A stretch of DNA of 64,000 nt from Cyanidioschyzon merolae (GCA_000091205.1 AP006496.2), one strand, 5' to 3'; shown: positions 1,151 through 62,000, counted from the first letter of the stretch. Numbers and translations: made by a program. Notes: a model not told the origin generated them from the sequence alone.

Positions 1151-2689
1151 GCTCCATCATCCAAGAGAGACCGGGCTAACTGAGAGGCTGCCTGAGCCCA
1201 AAAGCCTCGTCGTCGGGGGCCCGCCTGTGCACCGTGAAAGCAGCGCAGTCGTGCCACTAGCACAACCAAAGGCCGACTCGGCAACACGCGTCACGCAAAG
1301 ACGCCACTGAAACTCTGAAGAAATGCCAATGCCTCTTCGCTATTTCTGTTTCCAGTGAAGAAACTAGAACGTTGTGTGCAACGTTGTGCCGCCACTACCA
1401 GTGAGACTCAGAGTTCCCGCCTCGCCATCCGAACCCTGAGACGCATCCAGACGTGTCAAGCCAGAAAACAGCGACGTAGTCATACTTTGTACTGAAAAGT
1501 GTCCTTTGAATCCACGCACCATCACCCGCCGCGTATCGGGTCTGAGCGCTAAAGTCTGACGGTGCTCGGCGCAACGGCAACAGATGCGTGGTCATGGCGC
1601 CGGGAGCGGCACGCCTAGTGGCGAGTCGTGCATCCGCTAATCTTGGTACCGAGCAAATGCCACTTATGAACGGGCGATCGAGTCGGTGACCACTGTAGGC
1701 CGCGCGAGCGCAGTGTTTCGGCAACAGCAGAGATAACCTCAGTTTTCAATCGGGGGATACGTGCCGGACAGGTTTGGTTGGGGTTGATTTGGGCAATTTT
1801 CGCAGAAAAGTTGGCAAGGAACACATTTCATCTGCGTGCGTTGCAGTAAACTGCAGATCGAGACAAGTCCATGCATCAGACGAGCTCTCCGGAAAGGAAA
1901 GCGATTGCAGGTAGAATCTCGTGTAGAACGATTCGCTGTGCATGCTGAGGCCGAGGACCCGCATTCGAGCCTGTGCAGGGTACGGTGCATATCGAGACGA
2001 CGATCCTGTGCGGTGTGCTCCAGGACAAGTCGGTTTCCCGTGAAGACGTACGAGCGTGATACAGTTTTACCACTCACGCACAAGATCCTATTATTGGTTA
2101 CTCCGCGAACAAATCCATACGAGACTCGGCGACCTGATCTCAGAGCCGTTTCTCATAGTGTGCAGGCAGCTAGAAATCGGCCATATATAGCGAGAGCGCA
2201 GCGAAACGGGAAATGGCCCCAGACAGGTACAATGGGTTGAGTATACGAGCTCGCTGCAGCGCAGCGTGGATCAAACGGATCTTGCGAGAAATAATATTCA
2301 TGCCACAAATCGGAAGTACAATCCGTGAATATTAATATTAGACATGGGGCATAGCATGTGCAACAGATGATGCCAAGCGCCCAGAGTTCGGAATGCGCAA
2401 GCACGGCGTTTCGCTGGGTATCCAATGCATCGAAACCTCTGGTAGGATTCGTTTACAGATCGAATTGGCGTCAGGAAGCAGAGCGCTTGCCGCCCATCAG
2501 GCCGATTTGCGAGGCGTACGACGATGGATCTGCGGGTGCTGTGCCTCTCCTGGTTCGGGGCTCCCGTTCTACTCAGAGCAGCGAATTCTGGACAAGTGTA
2601 CCATGATCCCATCTTGTTGTTGTTTGTTTTCTAGCAGGTATTGAACGCCGGCAGTGTAGAGGATTGGCGAGTGACCTGCCCCAGACGAA

Positions 2690-13698: not shown

Positions 13699-13920
13699 AC
13701 ACGAGCTAGAGAAACGTGATCCGCCAAGCGTGCAAAGTTAATCGACGCCACGAGCCTGCGCAGCGACGTTGCAAATAAGGCTTTTCGACTAAAAACAAAA
13801 ACAGGAAACGTATTATACAAGATATAGAAAAACAGAAGCCGACGGAGGGTGCACCGTCGACGTACCGAGCTCAAGATTCCAGCGCACGATCGCATCTCGC
13901 GAATCTTGTCACCACCGCCT

Positions 13921-15850: not shown

Positions 15851-16240
15851 TAAGAGCGGGCGGCCTGCGTCATGGCGTCGCCCTGGTCCTAACAGACTCC
15901 TAGCACGTCGCTTCACGCTGTTGCAGGCAGCAGATCTGGCTGCCCAGTTGTCAGGCTCCCAGAATGATTACGTATTCCGACTCCGTATCAGGTGAAACCT
16001 TCCTCGATACGACGCCCTCAGTGGTATCGCAAAGCCGTTCTGTGTCCGTTCAGCATTGGCATCAGCGCTACAGGCGCTTTCGCTGGAGCTCAAATCAGAC
16101 ACTCGGGGCACAACAGGACGTACAAAACTACCGGTGTATCCAAAATGATGCATTAGTAATGGGCTTTGATGGTAGATGCGTCATGATGGACGCTTTTTCG
16201 ACTACCAATATCCATCTCGCCGGCTGAGATCCCCGGTCAA
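15850..16240 (+). repeat. X(partial)+R2 short interspersed repeat, copy A
   Basis: 15911-16240 aligns by eye with 42313-42650, 54114-54448 and the reverse complement of 60600-60835. Shared strings: ctcccagaatga, cgacgccctcagtggta, gcaaagccgttctgt, gatggacgcttt..ccaatatccatc. Confidence 0.6.
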
Positions 16241-16409
16241 TGTAAACGAATTTCGCCATCGAAAGAGAATCGATCGCAGCGCCCTGCGGATGCCGCCCCC
16301 CTCCCCTGCGAAATAACATCCAGACAAACATTACGTCTTTTCCCTTCAAAGGGAACACTGGTCCAAGATGCCGACCCTATGCTGATCGCAGAGCAAGCGT
16401 CGAAGGTCT

Positions 16410-20244: not shown

Positions 20245-20557
20245 ATGGTGTCGAGCGCTCGTTGCTCCGAACAGCGCGCGCATCCCGATAGCAGCCACTG
20301 CACGCGCACAACGAGGAAACTGTTGTCTAGGCGCTTCGGATACGCCGCTTACTAGCCGCACTGATACCTCTGCAGTGTCTGACTGAATAGCCGAACCATC
20401 ACCGATACGGATTCGGTGTCTACTGTGCGACGTATGCCAAACAGGCCGTCGCTCATCGGCCCTGAAAAAAAGACGACACAAATCTTTTGCCGAATACTCT
20501 GGGCGGGGAGCAAACACAAGTCCCGCTGCTCGCACTCGGAGACACTACCAGGCCTTC

Positions 20558-25873: not shown

Positions 25874-25907
25874 ACGCGTGCCCGCTTGAGACGACCCGCA
25901 CCATCAA

Positions 25908-26000
25908 CGCCGCTCGAAAGTCGAACGGCGCCAACGGTGTACAGTAGTGGCGGCAACCGCGCCCTAGACGAGACGTCTCCAACGGGCGTGCAGACGCCTC
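25908..26000 (-). ncRNA. candidate omega-RNA (fRNA) scaffold region of copy F3: the conserved 3' end of the ORF plus the noncoding tail
   Basis: Sense sequence after the stop, ...ctagggcgcggttgccgccactactgtacaccgttggcgccgttcgactttcgagcggcg, is conserved with copies F2, F4 and F5 and then diverges exactly at the element end. No structure or expression evidence is available. Confidence 0.25.
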
Positions 26001-28318
26001 CCAGTTTGTTTGAACCGGAAACCCACTACTGCTTCCAACTTCTTCTCATATTGTCCCACTTTAAGAGGTTGTCCAAGAAAATTCTCTCGTGTCCACTCTG
26101 GAGGTCTTTTCTCCAGGACCGCACATTTCCTTGTATTGATGGCGGCATTCAAATCTCGGTTCACAAACTCCATCCGTTTCTTCCCATTGGTAGTTGTACT
26201 TCCTAGTGCACCTAGTCCTCGCACTTTCACTCTCCTTTCCATTTGCTCTTCCGTCAGCGGTCCGTACTTTTTCATATCCTCAGGGCTCCGTTGGCACGTT
26301 TCCATCTCGACCCTCTGAAGTATACACCCCAGTTCATGGTATGTATAGGACGTTCGGAACTCACCTACAGGTAGTGTAACAAACCGGTGTGCGCACTCCT
26401 TGTACGTTCTTGTCGTTGGAGCTGGTGTACACAATTTTTGGGTCTTCCATCGCCCCGCCCCATACGCTGCTACGAGCCTCTGACTTTCATCCTCCTTCAG
26501 GGCGCTCAACTGATTGAAAAAGTTGGCAAACGCCCGCTGCTTCCCACAATACAAATTCATTCGGAAACGAGCCCACCGGGGCTTGGTATACTCCTCCCAC
26601 GGCGCATCCCAATGGGCAACATGAACTTTCATGAATTTCCGAAAAGCTTCAAAGTCCGCTCCTCGGCTCGCCACCTCGCTCAAAGCTTCTAGGTCATCCT
26701 TCATTCCTGAATTCCGGCTCTCGATTTTCTCCCTCGCATTCATTATACCCGATTCTCGATTGTATCTCGCTATCGAGAACCTCAATAGACGCATGTCTTT
26801 CCGACGTAAACTACCGTCAGTACCATCTTCCGCACACTTCGGTGCTGCGATGGTGATGATATTTGTGTTTCCGGGGTCCGCGCCAACGACAAAGTCGTTA
26901 TCGTGCACTTTCTACGTCACAGGGCCCGCCTCCTTCTTTTCTTCATGCATCACCGCGTCAACGACAAGCACGTTATCCTCCACCTCCTGCGTCTCAGGAC
27001 CCGCCTGCTTCTTTTCTTCATGCATCGCCGCGTTAACGACAAGGTCGTTATGTTGCACTTTCTGTGTGGCAGGATCCGCCTCCTCCTTTTCTTTATCCAT
27101 TGTCACGGGCACACCCGAGGGCGGGACTAAACGATCTGCCTTCAAACGCCGATTGTGTACTCACGTGGCTACTCCATCAGTTTCGATCAACCCAGTAAAT
27201 ACCGTTTGCTTGCTCACTCTCAGACGTTTGAAATCGAAGATATTCTTCCAGTACGTCTCCCGGTTTTCGCCGGAGAGTTCCTCACTGTTGAAATTAAACT
27301 CGGGACTGATCTCCTTCATGATGCCGTAAAGGACGCCTGAATCGATACTCACCAAATGTGACTTGAGGTTGCACATTGGAACACCGTTGAAGCGCTTCCC
27401 CATTAGGAAAGCCTTCCGTCTCCCCCACTCTTCAGTGTTTTCCTCACTCAGCTTTATCTCCGCCTTGCGTCCAAGTTCTAGATCCAGAAACAAGAAATAG
27501 CGAAGAATGAGGCGATAGTGTCTTTCCTTATCTTTTTTCAACTCTGATATCTTTTCTGCTGGACTCGGCAGCCCCAGTACCCCACGGCGCTCTTGAATAG
27601 CCGCACGGATGACAGAAGTTTTACACCTTCTCCTGCGTGACGCCTTCTCTCCGACGAATTCGATCTCATCTTCATGCTTGTGATCGTTCGTGATGCCATT
27701 GATAATCGACCATACTCCTTTGCGAGACAGGCCCGGGTACAGCGCAAACACGGCGCGTATCATGAAACGTTCGAGGTTCATCGTCAAATGGTTCCTCAGG
27801 TTCGTGAGGTAATTCATTGCCCCGTGTTCGTAAATATCCCGGTTACCAATGTATCGAGTGCCCTCGAAGCGGAATTCCGCGAAGTTTTCGTGGAGGGCGT
27901 GTACCCGCTCATTTTCCCTCCGCGTTTCCCTTGCGCCGAGCATCAAGTGACGAACAAAGATATTGTCGAAAAACTCGTCTGGAATCTCGACTGTTTCCAT
28001 GTGCGTCACATCGCGATACATCTCCCTCGCCATACGCATCAGTCCTGAAGACGCCCTGACAATACTCTTGGAGTACGAATCGAGACGTTTTTTGATAGCG
28101 TCTCGCAACTTTTCCCTGTACGGATCCTTGATATGTTCAAGAAGACCGGCTTTCACCACCATATCGTCGTACAGTTGTCTTTCTTTCCGCCTTCGACGTA
28201 GGGCCTCTCCCCTTTGCTTCTTCTTCTCTTCCTTTTCTACTCGACTCGGCACTGTTTTTTGTTTTTTTCTAGCAGCCGGCGACCCTGGGCCTCCAGGATC
28301 GTCGACTTGCTTTTTCAT
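25964..28318 (-). pseudogene. Fanzor1-like TnpB-family RuvC nuclease gene of copy F3 (about 750 codons, 2 frameshifts)
   Basis: N-terminus is basic (KKQKTVPSRVEKEEKKKQRGEALRRRRKERQ). RuvC-I is [17 protein letters not shown] (D at 26878-26876). The Zn-finger-like region is YKECAHRFVTLPVGEFRTSYTYHELGCILQRVEMETCQRSPE. RGLGAL follows. RuvC-III is FVNRDLNAAINTRKC (D at 26155-26153). Confidence 0.7.
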
Positions 28319-28572
28319 AGGTTTCCTTTTTTTTTAGTTTTTTGAAAAAGAACGCTCTTTGAACCCTTATGTAATATACTGCGAACAAACACTTGACTAG
28401 ACTTATTTGAGGGTGAAACACAAATGAACTCAAAAACTGTACTTTGCTACGACTTTAACGCAAATAAAACTTGTACAGTAGAGCAGTGCGCTCCTGATCA
28501 GGATCGCGTTTCCCTTCAATGGCGACATGCGCGTCGTGTCAGGTGACTGCCTGATCTCCCGGGTGCGCTCAC

Positions 28573-29150
28573 CGAGCGCGATTTTTAGAATGGACAAAAC
28601 GTTTCCTTGTGCCAGCGTTCTCCGATTGTGCGCATTTTTCTTTTCTTTCTCTCTTTTTGTGTTTTTTTCAGTGCGCGGTGAGGTATCCATCAACCCCCTA
28701 CCTCCATGTTACATTACCGATACTTCATCGCGGATATTCTGGTCGTTTCATACGTCCTATGATGTGTGCCTAGTACCTGCCGTGCCGTACCCGCCTTTGG
28801 ACCTTAACAGCTGGGGCAGATAGTTCATAGAGACAGAACGGCTTTTCCATACCACAGAGGGCGCCGGCTCGAGGCGTGGTTTACCCGACGTAGAATTGGG
28901 TGTCGCCGTCAGTTTGTGCTCAGACAGTCTGCGGATGCAGGTTTGTCTTCGCTGCACGAAACGCTGGAGACACTTGGCTGTTAGGATATATCGTGGGAGC
29001 CGCCTCTCTCTTTCGTGATCATGCATGGAATGCGTTGTTGTCGGTTGGCAATGTGGCTTCGTGCTTGACACCCACCCACCACTGTGGGTAGGCGCAGAAA
29101 GCACTGGGCCCGTGTGCGCATCCGATTCGCTAGACCTTCCGCCTAGAAGG
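28573..29150 (+). repeat. R3 interspersed repeat (~590 bp), copy 1
   Basis: Near-identical by eye to 48990-49575. The first ~150 bp (gccagcgttctccgattgtgcgc..polypyrimidine..cagtgcgcggtgaggtatccatcaaccccctacc) are also at 60420-60600. Confidence 0.7.
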
Positions 29151-30386
29151 TAGCATGTGAGTTTCTTCGCCACTAATGAGCGCTGAGGCTCGGTTAGCGG
29201 ACCATAAGTTGCCAGTGCTACACTCAGAGTGAGTGTCCGGTCTTCGACTATCACGATGATGCCCAGCTGCTGGTGTCCTCCAAGGAGCTCGCTGCGCTCC
29301 TGCTTCCAGCGCGGGCACTGTAAGCCTAAATATGTCAGCGTCTCGGGGATCTCGTCTCGACAGCAGGGACAGTGTGATTCCCAGTGCGATTCCAGTGTTC
29401 CTATACGGCTTAGAGACGGTGCTGGTAGCCAGAAGCCACCAACGCGGATTTTGGCGAGCCACTGGGTACCTCGAGCAAGTCCCGGGAATTCCAGCGCCTC
29501 CTACCAGTGCCTGCATGTGTATGCTAGGTTGTAGTTCCGGTATAGAGTCAAGCCGGCGTTAAGGGCGCGACTGGTACCGTGTCTACGTTCCCATATTGTT
29601 GTTTGGACCGTTCGCTTCAGGCGGTGGGAGCCTTCTACATTTCTGGGGAACGATTCGAGCGCATTTTCGCCTAAGAGGCGCTTCAACCAAATATGCGTCC
29701 ATTTCATCCTTCTTGCGACGCACCTACCGGTACCGAGTACGTCTCGAGCCTCGTACGCGCTACCGCGGCATATGCCGACCTGCCTCTCTCTCTTCAGTGC
29801 AGAGCGGAGGACTCGACGCTGGACCTCTTAACGACACCGAAAGGCGCTGCTGTTGCTTCTGGGGAAGCACCCGCGACTATCCGTCCAACGGTCCGTACCA
29901 GAGACGTTTGGCACTAGCCCCTAGCGCACTGACAGCTTCGTGCTGCTTGCCGGGTTCGTTATTCGGGCTGCCGAGCGTTTCGGGACGGTAGTCACAGCGA
30001 GCGCCTCCGCTGAGGCAGTTTCACGCTCTTGGGGAAGGGGCGCGCACTTTGCAGGTCGCCAACGTGTCCAGCGTCAAGCCCAACGACTGAACTGCCGTCG
30101 ACTGAGTCGCACACGTACACATGCTCACTGGGACATCAGCGCCTTTCGCCGCTTTGGACTGAGGCTTTGGCGGCGTTTACTACCCGAGTCGGAGAAAAGT
30201 GCGGCGGGTCCGTGAATACTGGGCGGTTTATTGCAGCACTTGACCAGGGAGAAGGGTTGCAGTGAACAGCAGCACGCTACGACTACTGCGCAAAGCTGTT
30301 CGCGCGCGTCTGGTAGCGCTTCCAAGTTGTGTCGAGCGCAGCATAGGCACGAAGCAACGACCCCAAAACGGACGCCCTGAACCTGC

Positions 30387-41399: not shown

Positions 41400-42010
41400 G
41401 AAACGCAGTGATCGCTCCACTGGGTGAATCGCTGAAGCGTTCAGCACACGCTGGCACAACGGAGCACATAAAATCTTCCTTCTGCATGTGCGTCTGTCTC
41501 TGGGAAGGTCAGCACCTAAGGGCATAAACAAGGGCGTTCGTTTGAATACATTAAAAAATCCAGGGAAAGTTATGGACTCGGAAGTCCGAGATGTTTGAGG
41601 CCCGGTGTTGCCAGCTGCCGGATAAAAAACGGAAAGAATCCTTTTCTCGACAAACATCAAGCGAACAAGAGTATGTGACGAAGAAGAAAAAGAAAAGAGG
41701 GGACACAGCACAGCAAAGATGTTTGGCCGACGGGATAGTGACGATCCTGTTATGTCACAGAGGACACGAGTTCGAGGAATCCTTGCTTTGGTGAGTTCCA
41801 CCAGCGGCAATAAACGCATGAAGTTCGTGAACCGAGAATTCAACGTCACCATCAGGATCAGACGATCTGCGGTGCTAAACACGGGGACCGAGGACCCCGG
41901 GCGATTTAACTTCATGGGGCAGCCTCTCAGACTCGACTTGTACCCAGATAATTCGAAATCGATAGCAGACGGCCGGTCCAGGAAAAGCTGGGAGACGTCG
42001 GTGTAAGTTT
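41400..42010 (+). pseudogene. Fanzor/TnpB-like fragment F7 (C-terminal RuvC-III region only, truncated on both sides)
   Basis: ORF 41719..42006 encodes RVRGILALVSSTSGNKRMKFVNREFNVTIRIRR...GQPLRLDLY, a degenerate RGLLAL and NRDxNAAINI region. There is no conserved 3' tail. X/R2 repeat copy B starts at 42030. Confidence 0.5.
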
Positions 42011-42029
42011 CTCCTTGATTCATTGAGAG

Positions 42030-42650
42030 GAACAGAAACTAACCATTCACTATCAACTCGATAACAATTTCTTCCCTGCTCTACCGTACACGTTTACAAG
42101 GGGAAAAGATTTCCGTATTTTCGAAAGCTTTCCTTCTAAGCGGAAGGTCCCGCGAGCCGGACGAGTCTGATGGGCTCGTGCTCCGTGCACCTCTGAAGTG
42201 CCCGGTGCTATAGTGAGGCCTGAACAGCTCCTCCGCAACGCACTATATTCTGGGACCAGGAGCAGGTAGGATGCATCCAGGTGTCGCCATAATCACAGAG
42301 GTCTCCGGGAATATCGCTTCGCGCTGTCGCAGGAAGTAGGCCTGTCTGCGCAGTTTGCAGACCCCCAGAATGCTGACAAGTCTGAATTCCGTATCGGATG
42401 AACCAAGCATCAAACCGACGCCCTGAGTGGTATGGCAAAGCCGTTCTGTCTCCGTGCAGCATCTGCTTCAACGGCATACGCGCGATTGCGGATGCAGCAA
42501 GACAGGTACCCGGCGCACGATCGAGCGTACATAACGACCGGTACATCCGAGAGGAACTATGGATCAGGGAACTTGCAAGTAGGTTGCAGCATGAAGGATG
42601 CTTTCTCGGTAACCAATATCCATCCCACAATCTGCGATCCATGGTCCAAG
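42030..42650 (+). repeat. X + R2 composite short repeat, copy B
   Basis: 42030-42312 (X: aacagaaactaaccatt...cccgcgagccggacgagt...) matches 53815-54113. 42313-42650 (R2) matches copies A, C and D. Confidence 0.65.
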
Positions 42651-44915
42651 GGATCATTCTACCGAATAACAACAAAATCGTGCGCAGGTCGCCGACGGCG
42701 CCCGCGCCTCTACCAGCCACAGACGTATGCGCTTTGCGTAGGCTCTTTGCTGGAGGCCTGTCGCTCAACACTGCACGTGCTGCTTTTCCCTCTGTGTGTG
42801 ATGCGGAAACGACGCAGCAGTTTAGGTTTCGTTGAGAATGTCTGCCTTGTGTCGGGCGTCGGGAGCGTCACGCGCTGGAGCGCTCGCGCTTCATCCCAGC
42901 GTGCCACCTCGGAAGCGCTGGTGTTTCGTCAGCCACGTGTTAGGGTTACTCGGCAACCGTCGAGGCGCTTGCGGCACCCTTTGGATGGCACTGGTGCGGG
43001 ACTGCGGGGCGCACAGCACATGCACTGTGTTTCAAGGCTCACGGAGCGGTCCCTGGCTGTGATTCATCCAGGGAGCGCTCTGCAGACAGTGCGCCAAGTG
43101 CTCACGACGCTCCTGGTCGCGTGCAGCTCGGACGCTGCTGTTGTCACCGCTGCAATAGTTTGTCTCTCCGTGTACTTGTCGTTGCACGTTAACCAAGCAC
43201 GCCGGGCCGAAATCGCGCAGAACAGGCCAACCGACGGCCACGCTCAACGGCATGCACCTGGACTCTCAGATAAAGCGACCGCTAGACTAGTAGCAATAGA
43301 GATAGGACGTTCGAGCCGAACACTCTATGTTGACAAGGGCCCGCTGGATACAACAGCCTCAGAGCGATTGCTGCTGGCTATATCGGACGCAAGCTCCTTT
43401 CGCGCACGCGGAAGAAATGTATGGCGCGCTCTCGTGGGGTCGCTCTTGCCGGAGGGATTCGGCGACAAGACACGCTTCCCGCCCGTTGTTTCAGATGACT
43501 ACCTGCCGTATACCGTCCTTCACTTTATGCAGAACCTCGTCCACGCTGCAGCGTCAGTCATTGCGACGCAGTCGATGCTGATTGCCATCGGCGTCGCCAA
43601 GCAGGCCACCATCGGCGTCTCCGCTGCAGTGCAGTGGGTTCTCAAGGACGGGCTTGGGCGCATCGCTGCGATCATCTTCGGTTCGCTTCTGGGGAACCGC
43701 TACGACGCCGATCCGAAGCGTTGGCGAATGCGCGGCGATATGTTGTACACGCTGGGTGTGGGCACGGAGATCGCCACGCGCCTGGTACCGCAGTACTTTC
43801 TGCTGGTAGGCACCATGGCAAATGCCATCAAGTCCGTATCCTATATGATGCGATTGCCAACAGCTGCCGCCATTCGGAGGCATTTCTCCTTACGGGAAAA
43901 CTTTGGTGATCTATCTGCAAAGGCGAATTCGCAGGAGGTTCTCAGCATGTTGCTGGGTACTTTTGTAGGCATCGGCCTATCCTACATGATCGACAATAGT
44001 CTGAAGGCTCTCTTTGCATTCTACATCATTTATGTACAGATGTTCATTCTTTTTAACTACTGGTCACTTCGCGTTTTGCGGATGCGGACGCTGAACTTGC
44101 AGCGAACGCTCATTGTCATGAGGCGCTACTGGAACTCGGGTGGCGTTGAAACCTGCTCAGTGGCGATGGCGAACCAGGCGGAGAACTTTCTACTGCCATC
44201 GCGTTTGGGGCCCGCCCGCAGAGTGCGTTTCGGGTGTCGGCTGGGGGAAGCATTTCGAACGGTAGGCGAATTCGAAGAAGCGATTGCCAGGCAGCGATTA
44301 TGGCGAGGACAGTACCTCCAACAAACAGATGTCAGCAAGCGAAACGGCAATGCAGATGCTGACTTCACCAGTGTACCGGATGATGTACTCGATGAGCGCT
44401 ATTTGCTCGGCGTAGATGCAAAGCGTGGCCGAGTCTTCGTTGTCCTGCACCGGGACGCCAAAGTTGCAGATGAGCTGCAAGCGCTCATGCATGCGACCTA
44501 CTTGGTGCGTGCTGACTGGGGCCCGCCTCCCGACATGTCCATAGACAGGGTACGTGACGGCTACTTGCTGGCATGTGCAGAGACACCAGTCCTGGTTCAG
44601 CGCATGCGAGCAGTCGGTTGGAATGTGGACGAATTTGTGCACGCAGGCGGAGAGCGGGCAAGAGCCATCTGGGGAACGGAAATCGAACAGCTCGGCACAG
44701 CCGCTGCCGACGTCGAGCACCCGACGTCTGCGCTGACGCGCCTGCTTCATCCGGCAGTCACGAAGCAACCCTCATCGGTAGGTTCGTACGAGCTTCTCAC
44801 GACCGTTCAGGAATCAGCAGAGGCGACGGCAGCGGAGGAGTCGCTTGCCATGTCGCCATGGGGCCCTACGTTCCCCGAAGTGTCCTTCGGGTCCGAACTG
44901 GATATCGTATCTTGA
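42432..44915 (+). CDS. RUS family protein (DUF647; root-UVB-sensitive-like); the true start is probably well downstream of 42432
   Basis: The conserved block LPEGFGDKTRFPPVVSDDYLPYTVLHFMQNLVHAAASVIATQSMLIAIGVAKQATIGVSAAVQWVLKDGLGRIAAIIFGSLLGNRYDADPKRWRMRGDMLYTLGVGTEIATRLVPQYFLLVGTMANAIKSVSYMM matches DUF647 from memory. The first ~70 codons of the ORF lie inside R2 repeat copy B. Confidence 0.6.
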   Translation: MAKPFCLRAASASTAYARLRMQQDRYPAHDRAYITTGTSERNYGSGNLQVGCSMKDAFSVTNIHPTICDPWSKGSFYRITTKSCAGRRRRPRLYQPQTYALCVGSLLEACRSTLHVLLFPLCVMRKRRSSLGFVENVCLVSGVGSVTRWSARASSQRATSEALVFRQPRVRVTRQPSRRLRHPLDGTGAGLRGAQHMHCVSRLTERSLAVIHPGSALQTVRQVLTTLLVACSSDAAVVTAAIVCLSVYLSLHVNQARRAEIAQNRPTDGHAQRHAPGLSDKATARLVAIEIGRSSRTLYVDKGPLDTTASERLLLAISDASSFRARGRNVWRALVGSLLPEGFGDKTRFPPVVSDDYLPYTVLHFMQNLVHAAASVIATQSMLIAIGVAKQATIGVSAAVQWVLKDGLGRIAAIIFGSLLGNRYDADPKRWRMRGDMLYTLGVGTEIATRLVPQYFLLVGTMANAIKSVSYMMRLPTAAAIRRHFSLRENFGDLSAKANSQEVLSMLLGTFVGIGLSYMIDNSLKALFAFYIIYVQMFILFNYWSLRVLRMRTLNLQRTLIVMRRYWNSGGVETCSVAMANQAENFLLPSRLGPARRVRFGCRLGEAFRTVGEFEEAIARQRLWRGQYLQQTDVSKRNGNADADFTSVPDDVLDERYLLGVDAKRGRVFVVLHRDAKVADELQALMHATYLVRADWGPPPDMSIDRVRDGYLLACAETPVLVQRMRAVGWNVDEFVHAGGERARAIWGTEIEQLGTAAADVEHPTSALTRLLHPAVTKQPSSVGSYELLTTVQESAEATAAEESLAMSPWGPTFPEVSFGSELDIVS

Positions 44916-48989: not shown

Positions 48990-49575
48990 TAAATATATCA
49001 TTAGGTATCTATATGCCACCACAGCAGCACGTTCGGATTTTTTCGCTGACAAAACGTTTACTTCGGCCAGCGTTCTCCGATTAAGCGCATTTGTTTCTTA
49101 CTTTTTTTGTGGTTTTTTTCAGTGGGCGGTAAGGTGTCCATCAAACCCCCGACCTCCAAGTTACATTGCCGATACCTCTTCTCGGATATTCCGGTCGTTT
49201 CATACGTCCCATCGGGTGTGCCTAGTGCCTGCCGTTCCGTATCCGCCTTTGGACCTTAAATGCTAGAGCAGATAGTTCATAGAGCTAGAACAGCTTTTCT
49301 ATACCCGAGAGGACGTCGGCTCGAGGCGTGCTTCACCCAACGTAGAATCGGGTCTCGTCGTCAGTTTGTGCTCGGACAGTCTGCGGATGCAGGCTTGCCT
49401 TCGCTGCACGACACGCTGGAGAAACTTGGCTGTTAGGATGAATGCTGGGAGCCGCCTCTCTCCTTCGTGATCATGCATGGAATGCGTTGTTGTCGGTTGG
49501 CAATGCGGGTTTGTGCTTGACACCCACCACAGTGGGTAGGCGCAGAAAGCGCACTGGCCCCGTATGCGTATCCGA
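48990..49575 (+). repeat. R3 interspersed repeat, copy 2 (no adjacent Fanzor gene)
   Basis: Aligns along its full length with 28573-29150. It lies ~280 bp upstream of the start of the minus-strand Dim1-like gene. Confidence 0.7.
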
Positions 49576-49905
49576 TTCGCTGGACCTTGCGCCCAGAAGG
49601 TACCCTTGATGCCGATGCGCGTCGCGCACATTAGCATAAGCGCATAACCTGGACAATCCGACACCATCCACCATGCAAGCTGCGGAAGGCAGTTTGGTGG
49701 CGCCATTCGTGCCAGAGGCGCTGCTGCGCTTTCGGTTGCGCGCGCTGGCCATCGAGGTAGCGCGAATGCTCGCCAAAGTGCGCGCACAGCTCGCGCAACG
49801 GAATCCTGTGTGGGGTGTAGCGAATTCTCCCCCCCAGGTACCGCTACGCTGCTGCACTGAGGTCGACTCCAAAAGGGTGCCTGTTGGAGGCGTGAACCGC
49901 CATCA

Positions 49906-50541: not shown

Positions 50542-51285
50542 TGTCACTTCTTTGCACAGTCACATAAAGGCCGCCAATGGTGCCCCTTCATGTTTATGAT
50601 GTAGAAGGCTTGCTGTGCGCCATGCAGCGCAGGAGGCTGCTTCGTTCCGCTGCGCACTCTGGTGCGTGCTCGCTACCGAACGCTTGCATGCATCTCCATA
50701 GCGGGGCGCAGTCGCACGTCTCCACAGAGCCATTCCGGACATGATCGTCTTGAATGGTTTGTGTGTTGGAATACAACCCGTGGTGAAGCGTGATGCCGGC
50801 GAGGGTGACGCTTACCACGAAAACACCTCCTGCGACCAGTCGTCTTGCGGGCAGCTCCAGCCAGCGCTTTCCTGACAGTAACTGTCTTCCGAGCAAACTC
50901 GCGTACGTCATATAATTCTGCAGACACGTCCCCGTTTCACGGAAGGGAAAATCTCGAGGAGCAAAGCGGAGCCGCCCGCACGCCCACACACACACATCTA
51001 TGATAGGGACGAGAACGGATCACCCAGCACTTGTGTGACGAACAGTGCTCCGTGTCGCGTTCTGTTTCCGTGCACGAAAGGCTTGCTTTCAGCGCTACTT
51101 GTCGTAATTAAGGACCGGCCAGACCGTTGGAGCAGTGTCCGGTGCAGTAGACCGCGTACCTGAAAGCCACAAAAGGCGCACAGGGCAGAGCGCCGTACTG
51201 CGTCCAGCTCGCGAAACCGGTCGCTTCTTTCGGGCGATGGGCGCGGTCGCCTGCTGCTGGTCCGTGGTATCGCCGACACAAGGAG

Positions 51286-51400
51286 CGCCTTAAAAGTCGA
51301 ACGTCGCCGGCGGCCGTGTACAGTAGTGGCGAGAAACCCGCCCTAGATAAAACGTCTTCAGCTGACGTGCAGACGCCTCCCAGCTTTTTTGGACAGGCTA
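51286..51400 (-). ncRNA. candidate omega-RNA scaffold region of copy F4
   Basis: Sense tail after the stop, agacgttttatctagggcgggtttctcgccactactgtacacggccgccggcgacgttcgacttttaaggcg, is conserved with F2, F3 and F5 up to the last base and then diverges. Confidence 0.25.
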
Positions 51401-53790
51401 CCTACTACTGCCTCCAACTTTTTCTCATACAGCTCCACTTTGAATGATTGCGCAACAAAGTTCTCTCGTGTCAACTCTGGAGGTCTTCTTTCCACCACGG
51501 CACATCTCCTTATATTGATAGCGGCGTTAAAGTCACGATTCACAAACTCCATACGTTTCTTGCCATCTTTGTTTGTACACAGTAATGCGAGTAGTCCACG
51601 AGCTTTCGCCCTGCTTTCCATTTGCTCCTCCGTCAACGCTCCGTACTTTTTTACATCCTCAGGGCTTCACTGGTACTTTTCCATCTCCACTCTCTGAAGC
51701 GTACAACCCACTTCATGGTGTGTATACGACGTCCGGAACTCATCTACAGGTATCGTAACGAGATGCCTTTCACACACCTTGTGCGTTCTTGTAGCTGGAG
51801 CTAGCCTAGTCCCTTTTTCCCACGCCTACCGCCCTGCCCAATACGCTTCTACTAGCCTCTGACTGTCGCTCTCCTTCAAGGCGCTCAACTCATTGAAAAA
51901 ACTCGTGAACGCACGCTGCCTCCCACCGTGTAGATTCATACACAACCGAGCCCACCGGGGCTTTGTATACTCCTCCTACAGCGCCTCGCAATGAGCAACA
52001 CGAACTTCCATAAACTCCCGGAAAGCGTGAAAGTCCGCTCCCCGGCCCGTCACCTGGCTGATCGCTTCCAGGTGCTCTTTCAATCCTGCGTTCCACGCCC
52101 CACTTTTCTTCCTTTATTCATTACACTGAATTCTCGGTAATATCTCGTTCTTGAAAGCTTTAAAACACGCATGTGTTTTTGACGTAGGTTGCCGTCGATG
52201 CCATCATCCCCGCAATTGCGTGTTGTGATGGTCATGATATTCGTGTTCCCAGGGCCCGCGCCAACGACAAAGTGGTTCTCATGCACCTCCTGCTTCGTGG
52301 GGCTAGCCTCTTTGTTTTCTTCACGCTTTGCCAGCGACGGCAACGAAGACAGAACTGGACGATCCGCCTTCAAGCGCCGATAATGTACACGCATGGCTAT
52401 CGCATCACTTTCGATCATCCCAGTAAAGTCCTTTTTCTTGCTCGTTCTGAGACGTTTGGAATCGAAGATATTCTTCTTCCAGTACGTCTCCTGGTTTTCA
52501 CCGGTGAACTCCTTGTTGCTTACATCGAACACTGGACAGATCTCCGTAATGATGCCGTAAGGGATTTCGGAGTCGATACTCACAAAATGTGACTTGATGT
52601 TGCACAACGGAACGACGTTGAAGCGCTTCTCCAGAAGCGCAGCTTTCCGTTTCTCCGTCACTGCATTTGCTTCAACACCCTGCTCCATATCGGTCTTGCA
52701 TTTCAGTTGTCGGTTCAGGAATATGGTATAGCGCAAGATGAGGCGATCGTATCTTTCCGAATCTTTTTTCAACTCTGATATCTTTTCTGCTGGACTCGCC
52801 AGCCCCAAGACCACACGATGCTCTTTAATAGCTGCACGGATTACAGAATCCTCATTTGCTCTCCTGCGTGATGTCTTCTCGTGAACAAATTCGATCTACT
52901 GTTCATTCTTACTATCGTTTGTGATGCCATCGATGATGGTCCATATCCCTTTGCGAGAGGGGCCCGGGTAGCGCGTACAGACGGCGCGTATCATGAAACG
53001 TTCCAGGTTCATGGTCAAATAGTTCTTCAGGTTCGTGAGGTGCTTCATAACCCCGACGGTGTAAATACGCGAGTCACCCCTGTCTCGAGTACCGTTGAAG
53101 CGGAATTCGGCGTAATTTTCGTGGAGGGCATGCACCCGCTCATTTCTCCTCGACGTTTCCCCTGTACCAAGCATCAGGTGACGAATAAAGGTTTTGCCGA
53201 AAAATTCTTCCAGAACCTCGACTGTTTTGATGCCCGTTGCGTCGTCGCGCATCTCCTTCACCAAATGCATTATACCTGCAGAAGCCATCATAACACTCAT
53301 GGAGTCTGACTCGATACGGTTTCTGATGGCCTCTCGCAGCTTTCGCCGGGACGGATCCTTGATATGTGCGAGAAGACAGGTTTTCACCACCATCTGGTCG
53401 TACTGTCGTGTTTCGTTCAGCTTCTGACCTCGGGCCTCCCTCTTTTGCTCCATCGTCTTCTCATGTTCCTTTTAGCTCCGCCATGTTTTTCCTTAGTCTC
53501 CGGCAGTCGACGACACCAGATGTCCAGGATCCTCCAGTTTCTTTTCCACAACTTTTTCATTATTTTTGAAGAAGAAGAAGGCTCTTTCAACGCTTCTGAT
53601 ATGAATCGCTAAAATTGATTTGAATACACTAACTTGAGGTTTGAAACACAATTGCATTAAACAACTTTAATTTGTTACGACTTTAACGCAAATACAACTT
53701 GTACGGTAGAACAATAAGAAAACGGATTTTCACAATTTCGCGTTTCCTTTCAACGGCGACACGTGCGTCTTGTCTCGTACGACCTGATCT
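51286..53790 (-). mobile_element. Fanzor/TnpB-like element copy F4 (full length, frameshifted)
   Basis: Minus-strand ORF pieces 51358..51636 (RGLLAL..FVNRDFNAAINIRRCAVVE), 52080..52814 ([14 protein letters not shown] with a single acidic repeat unit) and 52896..53453 (N-terminal domain, starting MEQKREARGQK...). The conserved 3' tail is 51286-51357. The 5' UTR (gactttaacgcaaatacaacttgtac, cgcgtttcctttcaacggcgacacgtgcg...ctgatctccccggcgcgc) ends at ~53790, where repeat X begins. Confidence 0.75.
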
Positions 53791-53814
53791 CCCCGGCGCG
53801 CTAACCGACCGCAG

Positions 53815-54448
53815 CATACAGAGCAAAGAACAGAGACTAACCATTAACTAGCAACGATATACCAATTTATCTTCCCTGCACGATAAACGATAAAAAGGAA
53901 ACACGATTCCCGTTTTGTCGAAAGTTGAATTTCTCGACGGAAAAACCCGCGAGCCAGACGAGTACCCCAGGCACGTGCTTCGTGCTCGCCTCCCAGTGGC
54001 GGGTGCTGCACTGAAATCTGAGCAATTCGTCTGCAGCACTGTTTATTCTGGTACTAGCGGCAGTTAAACTGCATCTGGGCGTCGATCCGGTCGCGGTGGA
54101 GTCCTAGTATAGAGCTTCACGCTATCGCAGGCAGTGTGTCTGTCTGCGGAGCTTGCTGGCTCCCAGAATGATCCTATACTCCAACTCTGTGTCAGGTGGA
54201 GCATTCCTCGATCCGACGCCCTCAGTAGTACGGCAACGCTGCTCTGTATCTGTGATGCATCGGCATCAGCGGATTAGACGCTAAGGCGGGTGCATCAACG
54301 CATGCACCCGGCGAATGACAGGAAGCACGAGACGAGTAGTACATCTGAAAGGAAGTATACGTAATGGAATCTGGAGTTAGAATGCAGCATGATGGACGCT
54401 TTCGCTGAATCCGATACCCATTTATAGCACAATCTGGGATCCATTGTC
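53815..54448 (+). repeat. X + R2 composite repeat, copy C, lying between the head-to-head Fanzor copies F4 and F5
   Basis: 53815-54113 matches 42030-42312. 54114-54448 matches R2 copies A, B and D. Confidence 0.65.
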
Positions 54449-54802
54449 AATATAAGTGTTTTTCCATCGGAAAAATGAAGCGTGTAGCTCTAACGTACAA
54501 ATTGTAACGATGTTCAAGTCGTAGAAAAATACATTGTTTGTCCTCAATCGTGTTTCAACCTTCACTCTAGTGTATTCAAGTGCTTTTTCGTGCGTAATAG
54601 CTGTCCCATCCAAAGTGGTTTCGGTTTTTATATTGAAAAAGGAAAGTTACGGAAGTGGAAGTGTAGGATCCTGGGCGTCAATGTCGCCGGCAGCCCGAAA
54701 AAACGAAGAACAGTGCCAAGTGCAAAGGAACAGGATAAGAAGAAGAAGTAAAAGTGGAAGGCCCTACGTCAAAGGCTACACAAAAGACGACGGTACGACG
54801 AG

Positions 54803-56838
54803 ATGGCGGTGAAAGCCTGTCTTCTTCAACATACCAAGGATCCGTACAGGGAAAACGTTCGAGAGGCAATATGGAACCGTGTCGAGCCGAACTCCAGCGG
54901 TGTTCGTGATGCTTCTCAAGGAATGTTGCATTTCCTAAGAAAATGGTATCATGACGTTACGGACATCAAAACAGTCGATATTCTGGGTGAATTTTTCAAC
55001 AAAACCTTTATTCATCACTTTATGCTTGGCACCGGGGAAACGTCTAGGTGAAATGAGCGAGTTCATGCCCTCCACAAAATTTACGCCGAGTTCCGCTTCG
55101 ACGGTACTCGATACAGGGGGGATTGGGATATTTACATCTACGGGGCGATGAAGTACCTCACCAGTCTAAAGAACCATTTAACAATGAACCTCAAAAGCTT
55201 CATGATACGCTCCATCTTTGCACTCTACCCCGGTCTCACTCGTCAGGGGATATGGGCGATTGTCAATGGCAACACGAACGATCGCAAGCATGAAGATGAG
55301 ATTGAATTCATCGACGAGAAGAAATCACTCAGGAGCATGAATGAGGATTCCGTCATCCGAGCGGCTATACAAGAGCATCGTACGGTACTGGGGTTGGCGA
55401 ACCGAGCAGCAAAGATATCAGAGTTGAAAAAAGATAACGAAAGATACTATCGCCTCGTCCTGCGTTACTTTGTGTTTCTGGGCCGTGAGCTCGAACGCAA
55501 GGCAGAGATGAAGCTGAGTGAGGAAAAAATGAAGAGCGGGGGAAACGAAAGGCTGCGCTTCTGGGTAAGCGCTTCAACGTCGTTCCGTTGTCCAACATCA
55601 AGTCACGTTTTGTGACTATCGATTCCAGAATCCTTTACGGCATCATGAAAGACTTCAGCCCCGAGTTTAATGTCAGCAGGAAGGAGAGTACCGGTGAAAA
55701 CCGGGAGACGTACTGGAAGAATATGTTTGATTTCACACGTCTGAAAGTGGGCAAACAAAAGGTATTCACAGGGGTGATCGAAACCGATGGAGTAGCCATG
55801 TGTATTCACTATCGGCGCTTGAAGGCGGATCGTCCAGTTCCGTCTTCGATAGTGTCCGTGACGAAGCATGAAGATGAGAAGGAGGCGGATTGTGCCACAC
55901 AGAAAGTGCAGGATAACAACTTTGTCGTTGGCGCGGACCCTGGGATTACGAATATCGTAACCATCGCTGCTCCCAAGCGTGCGGAAGATGGTAACGACGG
56001 TAACACACGTCAGAAAGGCATGCGTCTGTTGAGGTTCTCGAGAGCGAGATACCACCGAGGATCCGGCGTAATGAATGCAAGGAAGAAAATCATTACATGG
56101 AATTCAGGAATGAAAGAGCACCTGGAAGCTTTGAGCGAGGTGACGAGCCGAGGAGCGGACTTTAACGCTTTTCGGGAGATTATGGAAGTTCGCGTTGCTC
56201 ATTGGGATTCGCTGTGGGAGGAGTATACAAAGCCTCGACGGGCTCGTCTGCTTATGAACCTGTATTGTGGGAAGCGGCTTGCATTCGCCAACTTTTTCAG
56301 TCAGTTGAGCGCCTTGAAGGAGGATGAAAGTCAGAGGCTCGTAGTAGCATACCGAGCAGGGCGCTGGGCGTCGAAAAAAGGAACTACGCCAACTCCAACG
56401 ACAAGAACGTACAAGGAGTGCGCACGGCGCTTCGCTACGATACCTGTAGATGAGTTCCGAACATCCTATACAAACCATGAACTGGGGTGCACGCCTCAGA
56501 CGGTCGAGATGGAGAAGTGTCAGCGAAGCCCTGAGGATATACAAAAGTACGGACCGCTGACGGAAGAGCATATGGGAAGGAGGGCGAAAGTTCGAGGGCT
56601 ACTTGCACTAATGAGTACAACCAATGATAGTAAGAAACGTATGGAGTTTGTGAATCATGACTTAAATGCCGCGATCAATATCAAGAGATGTGCGGTGCTG
56701 GAGAAGAGACCTCCAAACTGGACAAGAATGAACTTTATTGGACAACCTCTCAAAGTCAAACTATATGAGAAGAAGTTGGAAGCAGTAGTAGGCGGCCGGT
56801 CCAAGAAAACTGCGAGGCGTCTGTACGTAAGTTGGTGA
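54803..56838 (+). pseudogene. Fanzor1-like TnpB-family RuvC nuclease gene of copy F5
   Basis: RuvC-I is [18 protein letters not shown] (D at 55936-55938). The Cys-containing region is YKECARRFATIPVDEFRTSYTNHELGCTPQTVEMEKCQRSPE. RGLLAL follows. RuvC-III is FVNHDLNAAINIKRCAVLEKR (D at 56659-56661). Confidence 0.7.
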
Positions 56839-56907
56839 TGTCTAGTCTGGGGCGCGGCGATCGCCACTACTGTACCACTGGCGACAGCGTTTTTCTTTTG
56901 AAAGGCG
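56740..56907 (+). ncRNA. candidate omega-RNA scaffold region of copy F5
   Basis: After the stop at 56836-56838: tgtctagtctggggcgcggcgatcgccactactgtaccactggcgacagcgtttttcttttgaaaggcg. This is conserved with the other copies and diverges at 56908. Confidence 0.25.
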
Positions 56908-56944
56908 TTGGTTTCCAGGGGCGCGCGCTACAGCAACGCCTCTG

Positions 56945-60419: not shown

Positions 60420-60835
60420 CAACGAAAGATGCTGCAAATTTTTTCCCATTGCCAAGACGCGTACCAAGGCCAGCGTCCTCCGATTGTGCGCTTTTGCTTT
60501 TTTCTTTTTCTTTTCATTTTTTTTCAGCGCGCGGTTAAGCATCCATCAAACCCCCTACTTCCAAACTCCGTAACCCATACTACTCCTCGGATACACTGAT
60601 CGCTTCATAGGCTGTATCGTTCGCTGAGCGCATGCCGCAAGCGTCCCTTGTGGAGCTTGTACCGTTGGCACGAATGCATCTCAATGACAGAACGGCTTTG
60701 CCGTACTAATGAGGACGCCGCCTCGGTGCTTGGTTTATCCAACATGGAATCGGGATTCACTATCATTACGAGAGCCTGCAAGCTGCGCAGACAGACCTAC
60801 TGCCTGCAACAGCGCGAAGAGATTTACCAGGATAA
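60420..60835. repeat. R3 5' fragment (plus orientation, 60420-60600) abutting R2 copy D (minus orientation, 60600-60835) in the SppA promoter region
   Basis: 60455-60600 matches the first ~150 bp of R3. The reverse complement of 60600-60835 matches R2 (cttcgcgctgttgcaggcag...ctcgtaatgatag...ggcaaagccgttctgt). Confidence 0.6.
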
Positions 60836-61089
60836 TCCTGCGAACACGGGCGACTCCTAGACGCAGCGCACCAGCTCCTAGTCCCGAACTGAACTGCGTT
60901 GCGGGCGAGCTGCTCAAGTCTCGCCATTGCACCCACCACTTGGTGGAGCATGAAGTTTCAGCGCGGCGGAGTCGTCTGGCTCGCGGGACGCCCCGACTAA
61001 AAGGTGAACTTTCGACCATGCGAAACAATTTTGCCAGCTTCAACACGTACCGTCGAGGCAAATATTCGTATATCGTTGCTAGGTAGCGT

Positions 61090-62000
61090 TCGTTTCCGTG
61101 ATTATTTTCTACAGCGCAGTCGATACGCACACCATCATATTTGGGAGATGACATTGACGGCAGCCTGCGCCACAATGAGATGCGTCTTTTGAAGTTCTCG
61201 AGAGCTGCATATTGCCGACAGTCGGAGATAATGAAGCCCAAGAAATACTGCACCCTGCAACGCTGAACAGAAGGAGTACCTGGACGCGATGAGCAAAGTC
61301 GCGTCGCGCGGAGCGGACTTTCGAGCTTTTCTCGAATTCACGGAAACTCAAGCTGCTCATGCCGAGGAGCTGTGGAAAGAGAGTATCCAAAGCCCCGGTG
61401 GGCTCGTCAGCGCATGAACCTTCGCAGAGGGAAGAAGCGGGTACGCGGCATGTTCATGAATCAGTTGAGCGCCCTCAAGCAGGACAAGAGTCAAAGGCTC
61501 GTAATTGGATACGCAGCAGGGCGCCGGGTGTCCAAAAAGCTAGCGTACCAGCTCCATCGACAAGAGCGCGCAAGGAGTGCACACACCGTTTCATCGCAAT
61601 ACCGACAGATGAGTTCTGAACGTCCTACGTGCACCAGGGGCTGTGGTATACGCTTCTGGAGGTCGAGATGGAAAAGTGCCAGCGGAGGGCTGAGCATATA
61701 CAAAAGTGCGGAGACCTGACGGTGCAGGAAATGGCACGAAGGGCGCGAGTTCGAGTACTCCTCGCTCTAGTGGGTTCAAGCAGCGGCAACAAACACATGC
61801 AGATCGTGAATCGAGACTTTAACGCCGCTTTCAATATCAGGTGATGTGCGGTACTGGAGAAGAGATTCGAGGGGTTGACACGATCCAATTTTGTGCCACA
61901 AACTCTCCGAGTCCAACTGTAAAACGAGAACTTGAAACCAATAACAGGCGGCCGGTCGATAGAGACGGAGCGGCGTCAGCACGTCGGTACATAGGTACCC
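61090..62000 (+). pseudogene. Fanzor/TnpB-like fragment F6 (5'-truncated, degenerate C-terminal half)
   Basis: Plus-strand frames encode ..MRLLKFSRAAY.., ..YPKPRWARQRMNL..GKKRVRGMFMNQLSALKQDKSQRLVIGYAAGRR.., RFIAIPTDEF.., and LLEVEMEKCQRRAEHIQKCGDLTVQEMARRARVRVLLALVGSSSGNKHMQIVNRDFNAAFNIR, the last two being the Cys region and RuvC-III. Confidence 0.6.

Follow-up and report, generated by a model that had tools for sequence, protein, structure and literature searches.

A head-to-head pair of decayed Fanzor1 copies around one TE-N2-type module in Cyanidioschyzon merolae

In a stretch of 64,000 nucleotides of Cyanidioschyzon merolae DNA (GCA_000091205.1, AP006496.2; here called the window), two Fanzor copies, F4 and F5, diverge from a common repeat core, which raises the question of how such a structure is formed and why its junctions recur. 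An earlier note, made from the sequence alone, had offered two answers: segmental duplication of a composite unit, or a strong preference of the Fanzor element for a target site at the edge of the repeats, as expected of TAM-directed insertion.

Self-BLAST of the window recovered F4 (minus) and F5 (plus) as an inverted pair with 76.6% identity over 2.4 kb, the matches extending over 51293-53812 and 54487-56912, respectively. They are separated by a non-F segment with matches at 42030-42646 (+, 68%), 60537-61099 (-, 63%) and, truncated on the left, 15833-16264 (+). Base-level reading gave the boundaries listed in Table 1, and the limits proposed earlier for the locus (51286-56907) and its centre (53454-54803) were accurate. 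The description of the pair as two full-length head-to-head copies is right as to the inverted arrangement; full length applies at the DNA level only, and both ORFs are broken. The centre had been read as two repeats, X and R2, and is in fact one unit. It runs in reverse relative to F4, the two together making up a standard A-type composite of 3.2 kb, and its opposite end is joined to F5; judging from the sequence, this would be a second standard junction, between R2 end and F 5' end, like that between F3 and R3 and that at one independent head-to-head locus. The conserved 3' tail of F5 is the sharp 3' boundary of the family.

The gene adjoining F5 encodes PTH2, an exact match to BAM81176.1 of C. 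merolae 10D, and the 3' end of F5 lies about 40 nt upstream of its start codon. An orthologous locus (L004, 98.6% identical) has kept the head-to-head arrangement, which is far beyond chance. As to consequences, the arrangement at most places the F5 3' end near the PTH2 start.

Table 1. Positions of F copies, modules and related units in the window
Feature	Coordinates	Strand	Description
F1	2646..5150	-	5' region rearranged or truncated; no module upstream
F2 + module	13910..16270	-	A-type composite with one deletion across the junction
F3 + B-type 5' module	25902..29709	-	F3 25902-28579; module 28580-29709, including R3 28593-29152
Old F relic 3' end + nested solo TE-N2-type unit	41680..42689	+	Relic 41680-42005, 41% aa identity; solo unit 42012-42689
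Solo R3 unit without F	49037..49602	+	Homology stops exactly where F begins in F3
F4	51285..53812	-	Near full-length Fanzor1 copy, subfamily A, pseudogene
F4 5' terminal GC-rich palindrome	53798..53812	-	GCGGTCGGTTAGCGC in sense; homologous to GCGCTCGGTGAGCGC
TE-N2-type module (X + R2)	53813..54479		667 bp; includes 18-nt terminal stretch 53813-53830
F5	54480..56921	+	Fanzor1 copy without the element's first ~95 nt; start at ~54480
F5 non-coding 3' tail	56840..56921	+	GGCG-loop-CGCC hairpin, ACTACTGTACC, terminal hairpin ACGTTTTTCTTTTGAAAGGCGT, tail GTTGGTTTCCAGGGG
Module + F6	60440..61988	+	A-type composite; module on minus strand, 60440-61099

The assignment of the F copies to Fanzor was borne out both by profile search and by fold. 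Searched singly against Pfam, NCBIfam, PHROGs and PDB, the 416-aa ORF of F5 had no significant match, and a profile of the family had to be used. The profile of 13 family members matched SpuFz1 (8gkh, E=6.4e-18) and GtFz1 (9cer, E=1.8e-4), and the Pfam domain Cas12f1-like_TNB was present in a distant member, P0062. Additionally, an AF2 model of the relative P0047 (43% identical to the consensus; pLDDT 80.8, pTM 0.71) was submitted to Foldseek, and the top seven PDB matches were all Fanzor1 proteins (SpuFz, PpFz and GtFz; E 5e-16 to 1e-13, TM 0.52-0.69). The catalytic RuvC columns D398, E569 and D636 were invariant in the family alignment (A1) and aligned with the SpuFz motifs. It is clear from profile and fold that the protein encoded by the F family is Fanzor1.

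The family itself has already been published. Nozaki et al. (2007, BMC Biol 5:28) described a WSV486-like interspersed repeat of C. merolae, about 3.2 kb long and present in 253 copies, in all of which the ORF is truncated, and Bao and Jurka (2013, Mob DNA 4:12) named a C. merolae repeat the Fanzor1 element CMe-1A, the 5' 635 bp of which is TE-N2_CMe. The F family is this repeat, and the module between F4 and F5 is probably of the TE-N2_CMe type, an identification made by length, position and copy behaviour only.

Neither copy at the locus has an intact, expressible ORF. Remnants of the F4 ORF occupy 51358-53453 and contain four premature stops and one frameshift; those of F5 occupy 54803-56838 in pieces of 82, 155 and 416 aa, with one premature stop and one frameshift. 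The D/E/D motifs are present in the consensus (GADPG, VDEF, NHDLNAAINI) and can still be read in F5 (GADPG, VDEFRTS, NHDLNAAINI), and the first Asp of F4, that of RuvC-I, is Gly (GAGPG). F4 and F5 are thus pseudogenes derived from the Fanzor1 family and not functional members of it. A majority consensus of F1-F5 restored an ORF of about 690 aa, intact except for one near-terminal stop which F5 and other copies read through. Divergence by codon position was 0.19/0.15/0.25 versus 0.30 in non-coding parts, indicating past purifying selection. Presumably the ancestral protein, which F4 and F5 cannot make, was an RNA-guided nuclease that helped the element to persist. The copies are 85-93% identical to the local five-copy consensus and 75-81% identical pairwise, and the F4-F5 distance of 0.241 ranks 20 of 38 among family pairs, so the two are not each other's close relatives.

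The F 3' end carries a conserved non-coding tail of about 110 nt with two hairpins, one of them in two alternative self-complementary versions. In characterised Fanzors, this is the region that encodes the guide RNA. RNAalifold on the last 170 nt of F returned no pairs and no consensus structure. Long-range stems proposed by hand for the 5' region were not conserved when the alignment of F 5' ends was inspected by eye. Scanning the window for Rfam families and tRNAs gave no hits, so the module is not a known RNA gene.

A-type composites, a reverse-oriented module joined base-precisely to F, were the commonest architecture, with at least 14 distinct loci and four deletion derivatives; the A-type loci counted outside the window are loci from related hot-spring populations. 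There were also five B-type composites and two independent head-to-head F-module-F loci, the second of which (L060/L076) has a module only 71% identical. L030/L081 were rejected as a third such locus: they are mosaics whose centre is 92-98% identical to the window, with an F body of about 82% identity and a different 3' flank, and represent either a chimeric assembly or a converted paralogue. In the search for empty sites, two divergent PTH2 contigs (L094, L095) turned out to be 99% orthologues with chimeric or variant ends.

The F 5' terminus varied by no more than a few bases across six upstream contexts (A, B, N1, N2, L014 and L018), the homologue of the F4 terminal palindrome being the start of F in every one. 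A triplet A[T/G]C recurs just upstream and may be part of F itself. The 3' flanks, on the other hand, are unique and unrelated between copies. Solo module and solo R3 units end exactly at the junction position. The family has at least four alternative 5' modules, with the module reverse-oriented in the common form; the N1 and B modules contain no credible coding sequence or transposase-like ORF, and these two modules resemble each other at least as closely as their F copies do (86-88% identity). On its right, the window module ends in the XR and not the R3 form.

Within the window, the junctions which the earlier note had listed as the same were found to differ at base resolution. The F(minus)-X-R2 order at F2 does belong to such a composite, and the F2/X boundary itself results from a deletion across the standard junction (F begins near position 770 of the F3-based reference, the reverse complement of window 25902-28579, and the module near position 210). 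The F-fragment(plus)-X-R2 order at 41400-42650 is a different junction, because there a solo module is nested in the 3' tail of an old relic. In F3, the orthologue of which (L016) is 99% identical, F position 1 directly adjoins the R2-like part of R3, which runs in the sense direction. The F6 composite has kept the junction and the F 5' palindrome and has an internal deletion of about 1.7 kb, and the 3' 1.1 kb of F1 is 96.6% identical to F2.

Is the module inherited together with F? We found 33 class-A-associated columns, all of them in the first 606 nt of F (permutation mean 0.9), and copies linked to the module have 22-33 diagnostic alleles in common, none of them beyond the first ~600 nt. 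F4 carries 22 of 22 subfamily-A alleles and F5 10 of 20; the right arm of L060 has a non-A haplotype, whereas left arms have a pure A haplotype. Module divergence (0.33-0.35) was close to that of non-coding F (0.30). Whole-F distances did not cluster by 5' context, the tree being star-like (permutation p=0.86), and Mantel tests of co-divergence between module and F, run both with branch lengths and with these removed, gave no significant result, owing to the star-like shape of the two trees. With no co-variation of distances once branch lengths are taken out, the case for composite inheritance is therefore made by the 5' 600-nt haplotype and not by the whole element. Since copies adjoining the module share these alleles, the composite seems to have been inherited as a unit; independent insertion from a pool of F copies is unlikely, as it would not give shared 5' alleles. 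Duplication of a composite unit is thus supported in the form of copy-and-paste of a composite element, by the number of A-type loci, the relationship of CMe-1A and TE-N2_CMe and the shared 5' alleles.

The ends of the element were examined for signatures of mobility. No TSD was detected in 32 loci (observed mean 6.19, null 6.01), TIR scores were at the null level, and no convincing shared flank motif was seen at the F ends beyond the possible A[T/G]C. Palindromes are present at both F termini. As to non-LTR retroposition (TPRT), only a bias to 5' truncation (~7-8 versus 2 copies) and short TG-rich tails were observed, with no TSD and no poly(A) at the F 3' end. As established for IS200/IS605 elements, TnpB-family nucleases cut DNA and do not perform its insertion. 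For this reason among others, namely the unlike junctions, the unique 3' flanks and the lack of TSDs, TIRs and a convincing motif, the suggested TAM-directed target preference is not supported, and what the locus shows is a known transposon family in an ordinary arrangement, not evidence for RNA-guided targeting.

It seems likely that the locus consists of two independently decayed copies of a known repeat, head to head, with one TE-N2-type module between them, and that the junctions recur through composite propagation. We propose that they do so because module and F spread as one unit, and not because Fanzor was inserted by its TAM at the module edge. The unit would be copied by copy-and-paste, its 3' end being precise and its 5' extent variable. 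F4 and the module would represent a subfamily-A composite, in which the terminus of the reversed module and the palindromic F 5' terminus meet at base precision. F5 would be a second copy on the opposite module end, attached by an R2-end/F-5'-end junction across which about 100 nt were later lost; it may have arrived at the outer end of F4's module by insertion there or by recombination between the modules of two elements. Several observations speak against this explanation. Besides the star-like F tree and the lack of co-variation between module and F distances, chance adjacency would not give as many as two independent F-module-F loci among about 13 informative A-type copies, and no single-armed module(+)->F element turned up to act as a recombination partner. 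A constant F 5' terminus in six unrelated contexts, and solo module and R3 units that stop exactly at the junction, would also follow from end-specific joining. The constant terminus and the two loci with F on both module ends make a minority case for such joining.

Under end-specific targeting, F units or their mobilising machinery would insert site-specifically, the F 5' terminus coming to lie against either end of TE-N2-type repeats, and A-type, B/C-type and head-to-head structures would form repeatedly and independently. The base-precise boundary in all six contexts, the coincidence of solo R3 and solo module ends with the junction, F on both module ends at two loci and an F tree not partitioned by context all fit this. 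We nevertheless consider it rather unlikely: the class-A alleles are linked to the module, the likeness of the N1 and B modules is that expected under co-propagation, the only candidate motif is perhaps F's own, the 3' flanks are unrelated, and proteins of the TnpB family are cutters and not integrases. It is also unlikely that the family moves by a hairpin-dependent, 3'-anchored single-strand copy-and-paste process of the HUH/IS200-IS605 kind, with no recognisable transposase, TE-N2-type ends being preferred landing sites of the palindromic F 5' terminus. If it did, the F-module-F structures and multiple 5' modules would be footprints of targeting and not of inheritance alone.

Ectopic recombination, a crossover or inversion between a reversed A-type module and the R2-type module of a B/C-type element with a solo module as the reciprocal product, is very unlikely. 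Both junction types and solo modules do exist in the family, and the non-A right arm of L060 beside the pure-A left arms would be explained, but no single-armed module(+)->F element that could serve as partner was present among about 45 loci, the XR-type right end of the window module does not fit, and two independent occurrences would be required. Local inverted duplication of one copy around the module, suggested by the inverted arrangement with its shared centre, is effectively refuted by arms 24% diverged and no closer than random family pairs, with unlike 5' haplotypes and different stops and frameshifts. Nesting of F4 and module inside F5 was also considered and rejected, since the missing 95 nt of F5 were not found beyond the 3' end of F4.

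The locus thus leads back to the main interspersed repeat of C. merolae (~5% of a famously repeat-poor genome) and to its Fanzor1 nature, both of which are in the literature. Its anatomy as added here could be of use in classifying a Fanzor1 transposon given as of 'unknown' superfamily since 2013; useful characters are the precise palindromic 5' terminus, the sharp hairpin-bearing 3' end, the alternative 5' modules, the 5' 600-nt alleles and the absence of TSD and TIR. The consensus ORF and 3' tail are now to hand for tests of a thermo-acidophile Fanzor, and there are metagenomic relatives with an intact (P0047) or near-intact (P0001) ORF.

Compared with the solved Fanzor1 nucleases (SpuFz1, 8GKH; PpFz; GtFz1), intact relatives of the C. 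merolae family have the same RuvC D/E/D arrangement and fold, whereas the window copies are pseudogenes and the zinc-finger cysteines are down to two. The solved nucleases have an omega/fRNA; the C. merolae family is known here from sequence and predicted fold alone. HUH and other ssDNA transposons (IS200/IS605, IS91, Helitrons, Replitrons) resemble the family in behaviour only: they lack TIRs and TSDs, have palindromes at the termini or close to them, end precisely on one side and imprecisely on the other, and multiply by copy-and-paste. They differ in that no HUH/Y1 transposase was found in or beside any C. merolae copy and there are no CTRR/TC Helitron ends, and Craig (2023) reports that red algae lack Replitrons. 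Eight bacterial-like 'transposase' elements are listed by Nozaki et al. (2007). From CMe-1A/TE-N2_CMe, compared by published description and not by consensus sequence, there is no essential difference: genome and length (about 3 kb) agree, and so do the ~80% likeness of the copies, the Fanzor1 ORF truncated in all of them, the lack of a TIR and of a detectable TSD, and a 5' repeat of ~635-670 bp which also exists alone. New with respect to the published element are the reversed module in the common form, the alternative 5' modules (at least four), F on both module ends at two loci and subfamily alleles only in the first 600 nt. In the MCi-2 Fanzor1 of Mucor circinelloides, a constant 3' Fanzor region is combined with differing 5' regions that define subfamilies, with no TIR and 'fuzzy' 5' ends (Bao and Jurka, 2013). 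MCi-2 has 11-12-bp TSDs and near-identical copies, whereas the C. merolae copies are old and have no TSD, but both families combine a constant 3' part with alternative 5' parts and no TIR.

Comparison of the window with itself recovered a single repeat family, F, whose copies are 75–81% identical to one another (F1 and F2 partly 96.6%). The head-to-head arrangement of F4 and F5 and its coordinates, as described in the earlier note, were confirmed by this comparison and by reading the junctions base by base; the two copies form an inverted pair with 76.6% identity across 2.4 kb. In the base-by-base reading, F4 terminates at 53812 in the palindrome GCGGTCGGTTAGCGC (sense strand) and F5 starts at about 54480. 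The intervening module had been taken for two repeats, X and R2, and is instead one 667-bp unit that aligns end to end elsewhere in the window; its R2 half is also present in the related repeat R3.

F copies and related units in the window
Feature	Coordinates	Strand	Remark
F1	2646–~5150	-	large copy
F2	13910–15819	-	5'-truncated
F3	25902–28579	-	large copy
F4	51293–53812	-	large copy
F5	54487–56912	+	large copy (self-comparison bounds)
F6	61100–61988	+	internal deletion
Old F relic	38567–38969	-	36–41% aa identity to consensus (range for both relics)
Old F relic	41680–42005	+	36–41% aa identity to consensus (range for both relics)
Module	53813–54479		667 bp (base-by-base reading)
Module match	42030–42646, 60537–61099 (reverse)		end to end
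Module match	15833–16264		left-truncated
R3	28593–29152, 49037–49602		shares R2 half

Identity between F1 and F2 (2683–4596 versus 13972–15817) is 96.6% in the 3' 1.1 kb and only 86% in the adjoining 0.9 kb; such a mosaic, in copies 11 kb apart, suggests that gene conversion took place or that part of one copy was recently duplicated. A solo unit of the TE-N2 type (42012–42689) is inserted into the 3' tail of the old plus-strand relic, so the module is able to move on its own. The 64-kb window contains about 8 F-derived segments, whereas the genome as a whole averages about 1 per 65 kb (253 copies/16.5 Mb). The region is locally enriched in F, despite an earlier description of the family's distribution as random. 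At 20017–20250, within GC-rich sequence that has no relation to F, a 114-nt unit is perfectly duplicated in tandem (two copies, 98–100% identical).

The head-to-head locus is an ordinary configuration for a Fanzor1 repeat family that has already been published from this very genome. Nozaki et al. (2007) reported a transcribed 3.2-kb interspersed repeat, with 253 copies making up about 5% of the genome, in all of which the ORFs were truncated and similar to WSSV WSV486. Bao & Jurka (2013) identified it as the Fanzor1 element CMe-1A, for which they gave some 150 copies, about 80% identity to a consensus of about 3 kb, no terminal inverted repeat (TIR) and an undetermined target-site duplication (TSD), and the 5' 635 bp of which are 95% identical to a separate repeat of about 70 copies, TE-N2_CMe. 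The 667-bp module is probably TE-N2_CMe, which it fits by size, position and behaviour. A small residual interest lies in how the F family transposes.

Stops or frameshifts were found in every F copy of the window. In the majority consensus of F1–F5 the reading frame is open for about 690 aa, broken only by one near-terminal stop that is read through in F5 and other copies; a frame restored in this way is the signature of one source whose copies decayed independently. Single-sequence searches were uninformative. The consensus retrieved 62 relatives, mostly from hot-spring metagenomes, among them intact proteins of 620–730 aa with basic N-termini. A 13-sequence profile matched Spizellomyces Fanzor1 (8gkh, E=6e-18) with the three RuvC motifs aligned, and also Guillardia Fanzor1; the seven best PDB matches of the AlphaFold model of one relative (P0047, pLDDT 80.8) were all Fanzor1 structures. 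The Fanzor assignment made from the sequence is borne out by the 8gkh match and these structural matches. Pairwise divergence in class A (defined below) was 0.19/0.15/0.25 at codon positions 1/2/3 versus about 0.30 in untranslated parts, so purifying selection acted on the ORF during the spread of the family. At the head-to-head locus the ORF is dead and both copies are pseudogenes: F4 carries four premature stops, one frameshift and a Gly in place of the first RuvC Asp, and F5 one stop and one frameshift. Just upstream of RuvC-I the ORF contains a 75-nt tandem repeat (25 aa, acidic/lysine-rich; 3591–3895, 14880–15112, 26878–27105) that varies in copy number and is absent or single in F4 and F5.

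A metagenome scan yielded 80 loci, which represent about 50 different copies of F. L004 and L016, at 98.6–99.4% identity, are true orthologues of the window, so the remaining loci are paralogues that come from organisms closely related to strain 10D. In class A (at least 14 loci and four deletion derivatives, F2 being one; F6, from self-comparison only, is a further one) a reverse-oriented module abuts the F terminus base to base. Class B (5 loci including F3) has a 1.13-kb R3-type module with its R2-like part in sense orientation, N1 (4 loci) another module, at least 1.25 kb long, and N2 (7 loci) yet another with nested extents of 48–650 nt; L014, L018 and F1 have unique upstream sequence. 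A sense-orientation module (class C) is confined to the right-hand arms at two head-to-head loci, that of the window and L060/L076. The L060/L076 module is only 71% identical to the window's, so the two loci are independent. L060 has a complete right-hand F with a junction homologous to that of class B, and F5 shows this junction with about 100 nt missing. F4 and the module are thus the canonical composite, with F5 at its outer end.

The ~40 nt between the F5 3' end and the start codon of the conserved host gene PTH2 (56921–56960; protein identical to C. merolae 10D BAM81176.1) place the repeat tail in the likely PTH2 promoter/5'-UTR region, and this arrangement is kept in orthologues from several hot-spring metagenomes (98.6–99.4% identity). 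L030 and L081 are 92–98% identical to the F4 5' end and module and only about 82% in the F body (versus 53377–56883), and their 3' flank differs from that of the window; they represent either assemblies chimeric across repeats or a converted paralogue. L094:1–316, AT-rich, foreign and encoding ribosomal protein S27e, joins the window sequence at 56858, exactly inside the F5 3' hairpin, and is probably an assembly chimera.

The earlier note explained the recurring junctions by duplication of a composite unit or by TAM-directed target preference. Two tests, a whole-F tree (star-like, no sorting by context) and module versus F distances (no co-variation), were without resolving power. Thirty-three alignment columns separate class A from the rest (permutation mean 0.9, maximum 20), all within the first 606 nt of F. 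F4 and the L060 left arm carry 22/22 A alleles and F5 10/20, and B, N1 and N2 copies 0–27%. Module divergence (0.33–0.35) is close to that of non-coding F (0.30), and N1 and B modules resemble each other as much as their F copies do. The module was therefore inherited with the adjacent part of F, which favours composite copy-and-paste over a scenario in which a common F inserted independently beside pre-existing modules. In all copies the diagnostic alleles are limited to the 5' UTR plus the initial ~190 nt of the ORF (F4: 53207–53812), and the remaining 2 kb of F is without subfamily structure, which suggests that subfamilies exchanged segments near F position 600.

Of the two further junctions listed in the earlier note, that at F2 was produced by a deletion spanning the canonical junction, and that near 42 kb is a different one, formed by a solo module lying within the 3' tail of an old relic. 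Nothing supports a TAM or guide driving insertion; flanks beyond the 3' end are unique, and neither TSDs nor TIRs were found for F copies. TnpB-type nucleases of IS200/IS605 elements cleave the empty donor or target site and are not known to integrate DNA.

F lies at both module ends in two independent loci, about 2/13 of informative A-type copies, which is too many for chance, and the head-to-head arms are without mutual kinship. Either the F 5' end lands preferentially at the outer end of a module, or recombination occurred between the modules of two elements. The missing 5' end of F5 was searched for beyond F4 and is absent there.

The 3' end of F is sharp and bears a hairpin (e.g. 56880–56921; alignment A2) in two self-complementary versions of different register, CGTTCGACTTTCGAACG and ACGTTTTTCTTTTGAAAGGCGT, and behind it stands a short tail of about three kinds, TTGATGGTG, TTTGTTTCCAGGGG and TTTGTTGTCGCTGCC, which are common to copies with different 5' modules. 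At its 5' terminus F has the same GC-rich palindrome in all of six unrelated contexts, and solo R3 and solo module units stop exactly at the junction. Copies truncated at the 5' end with the 3' end kept predominate (about 7–8 versus 2). No transposase was found in the 5' modules. The nested 5' extents, the truncation bias, the terminal palindromes and the lack of TSD and TIR suggest that copying may be 3'-anchored and 5'-imprecise. Such a mode would be reminiscent of HUH/rolling-circle elements, and F might, speculatively, be copied in a similar way.
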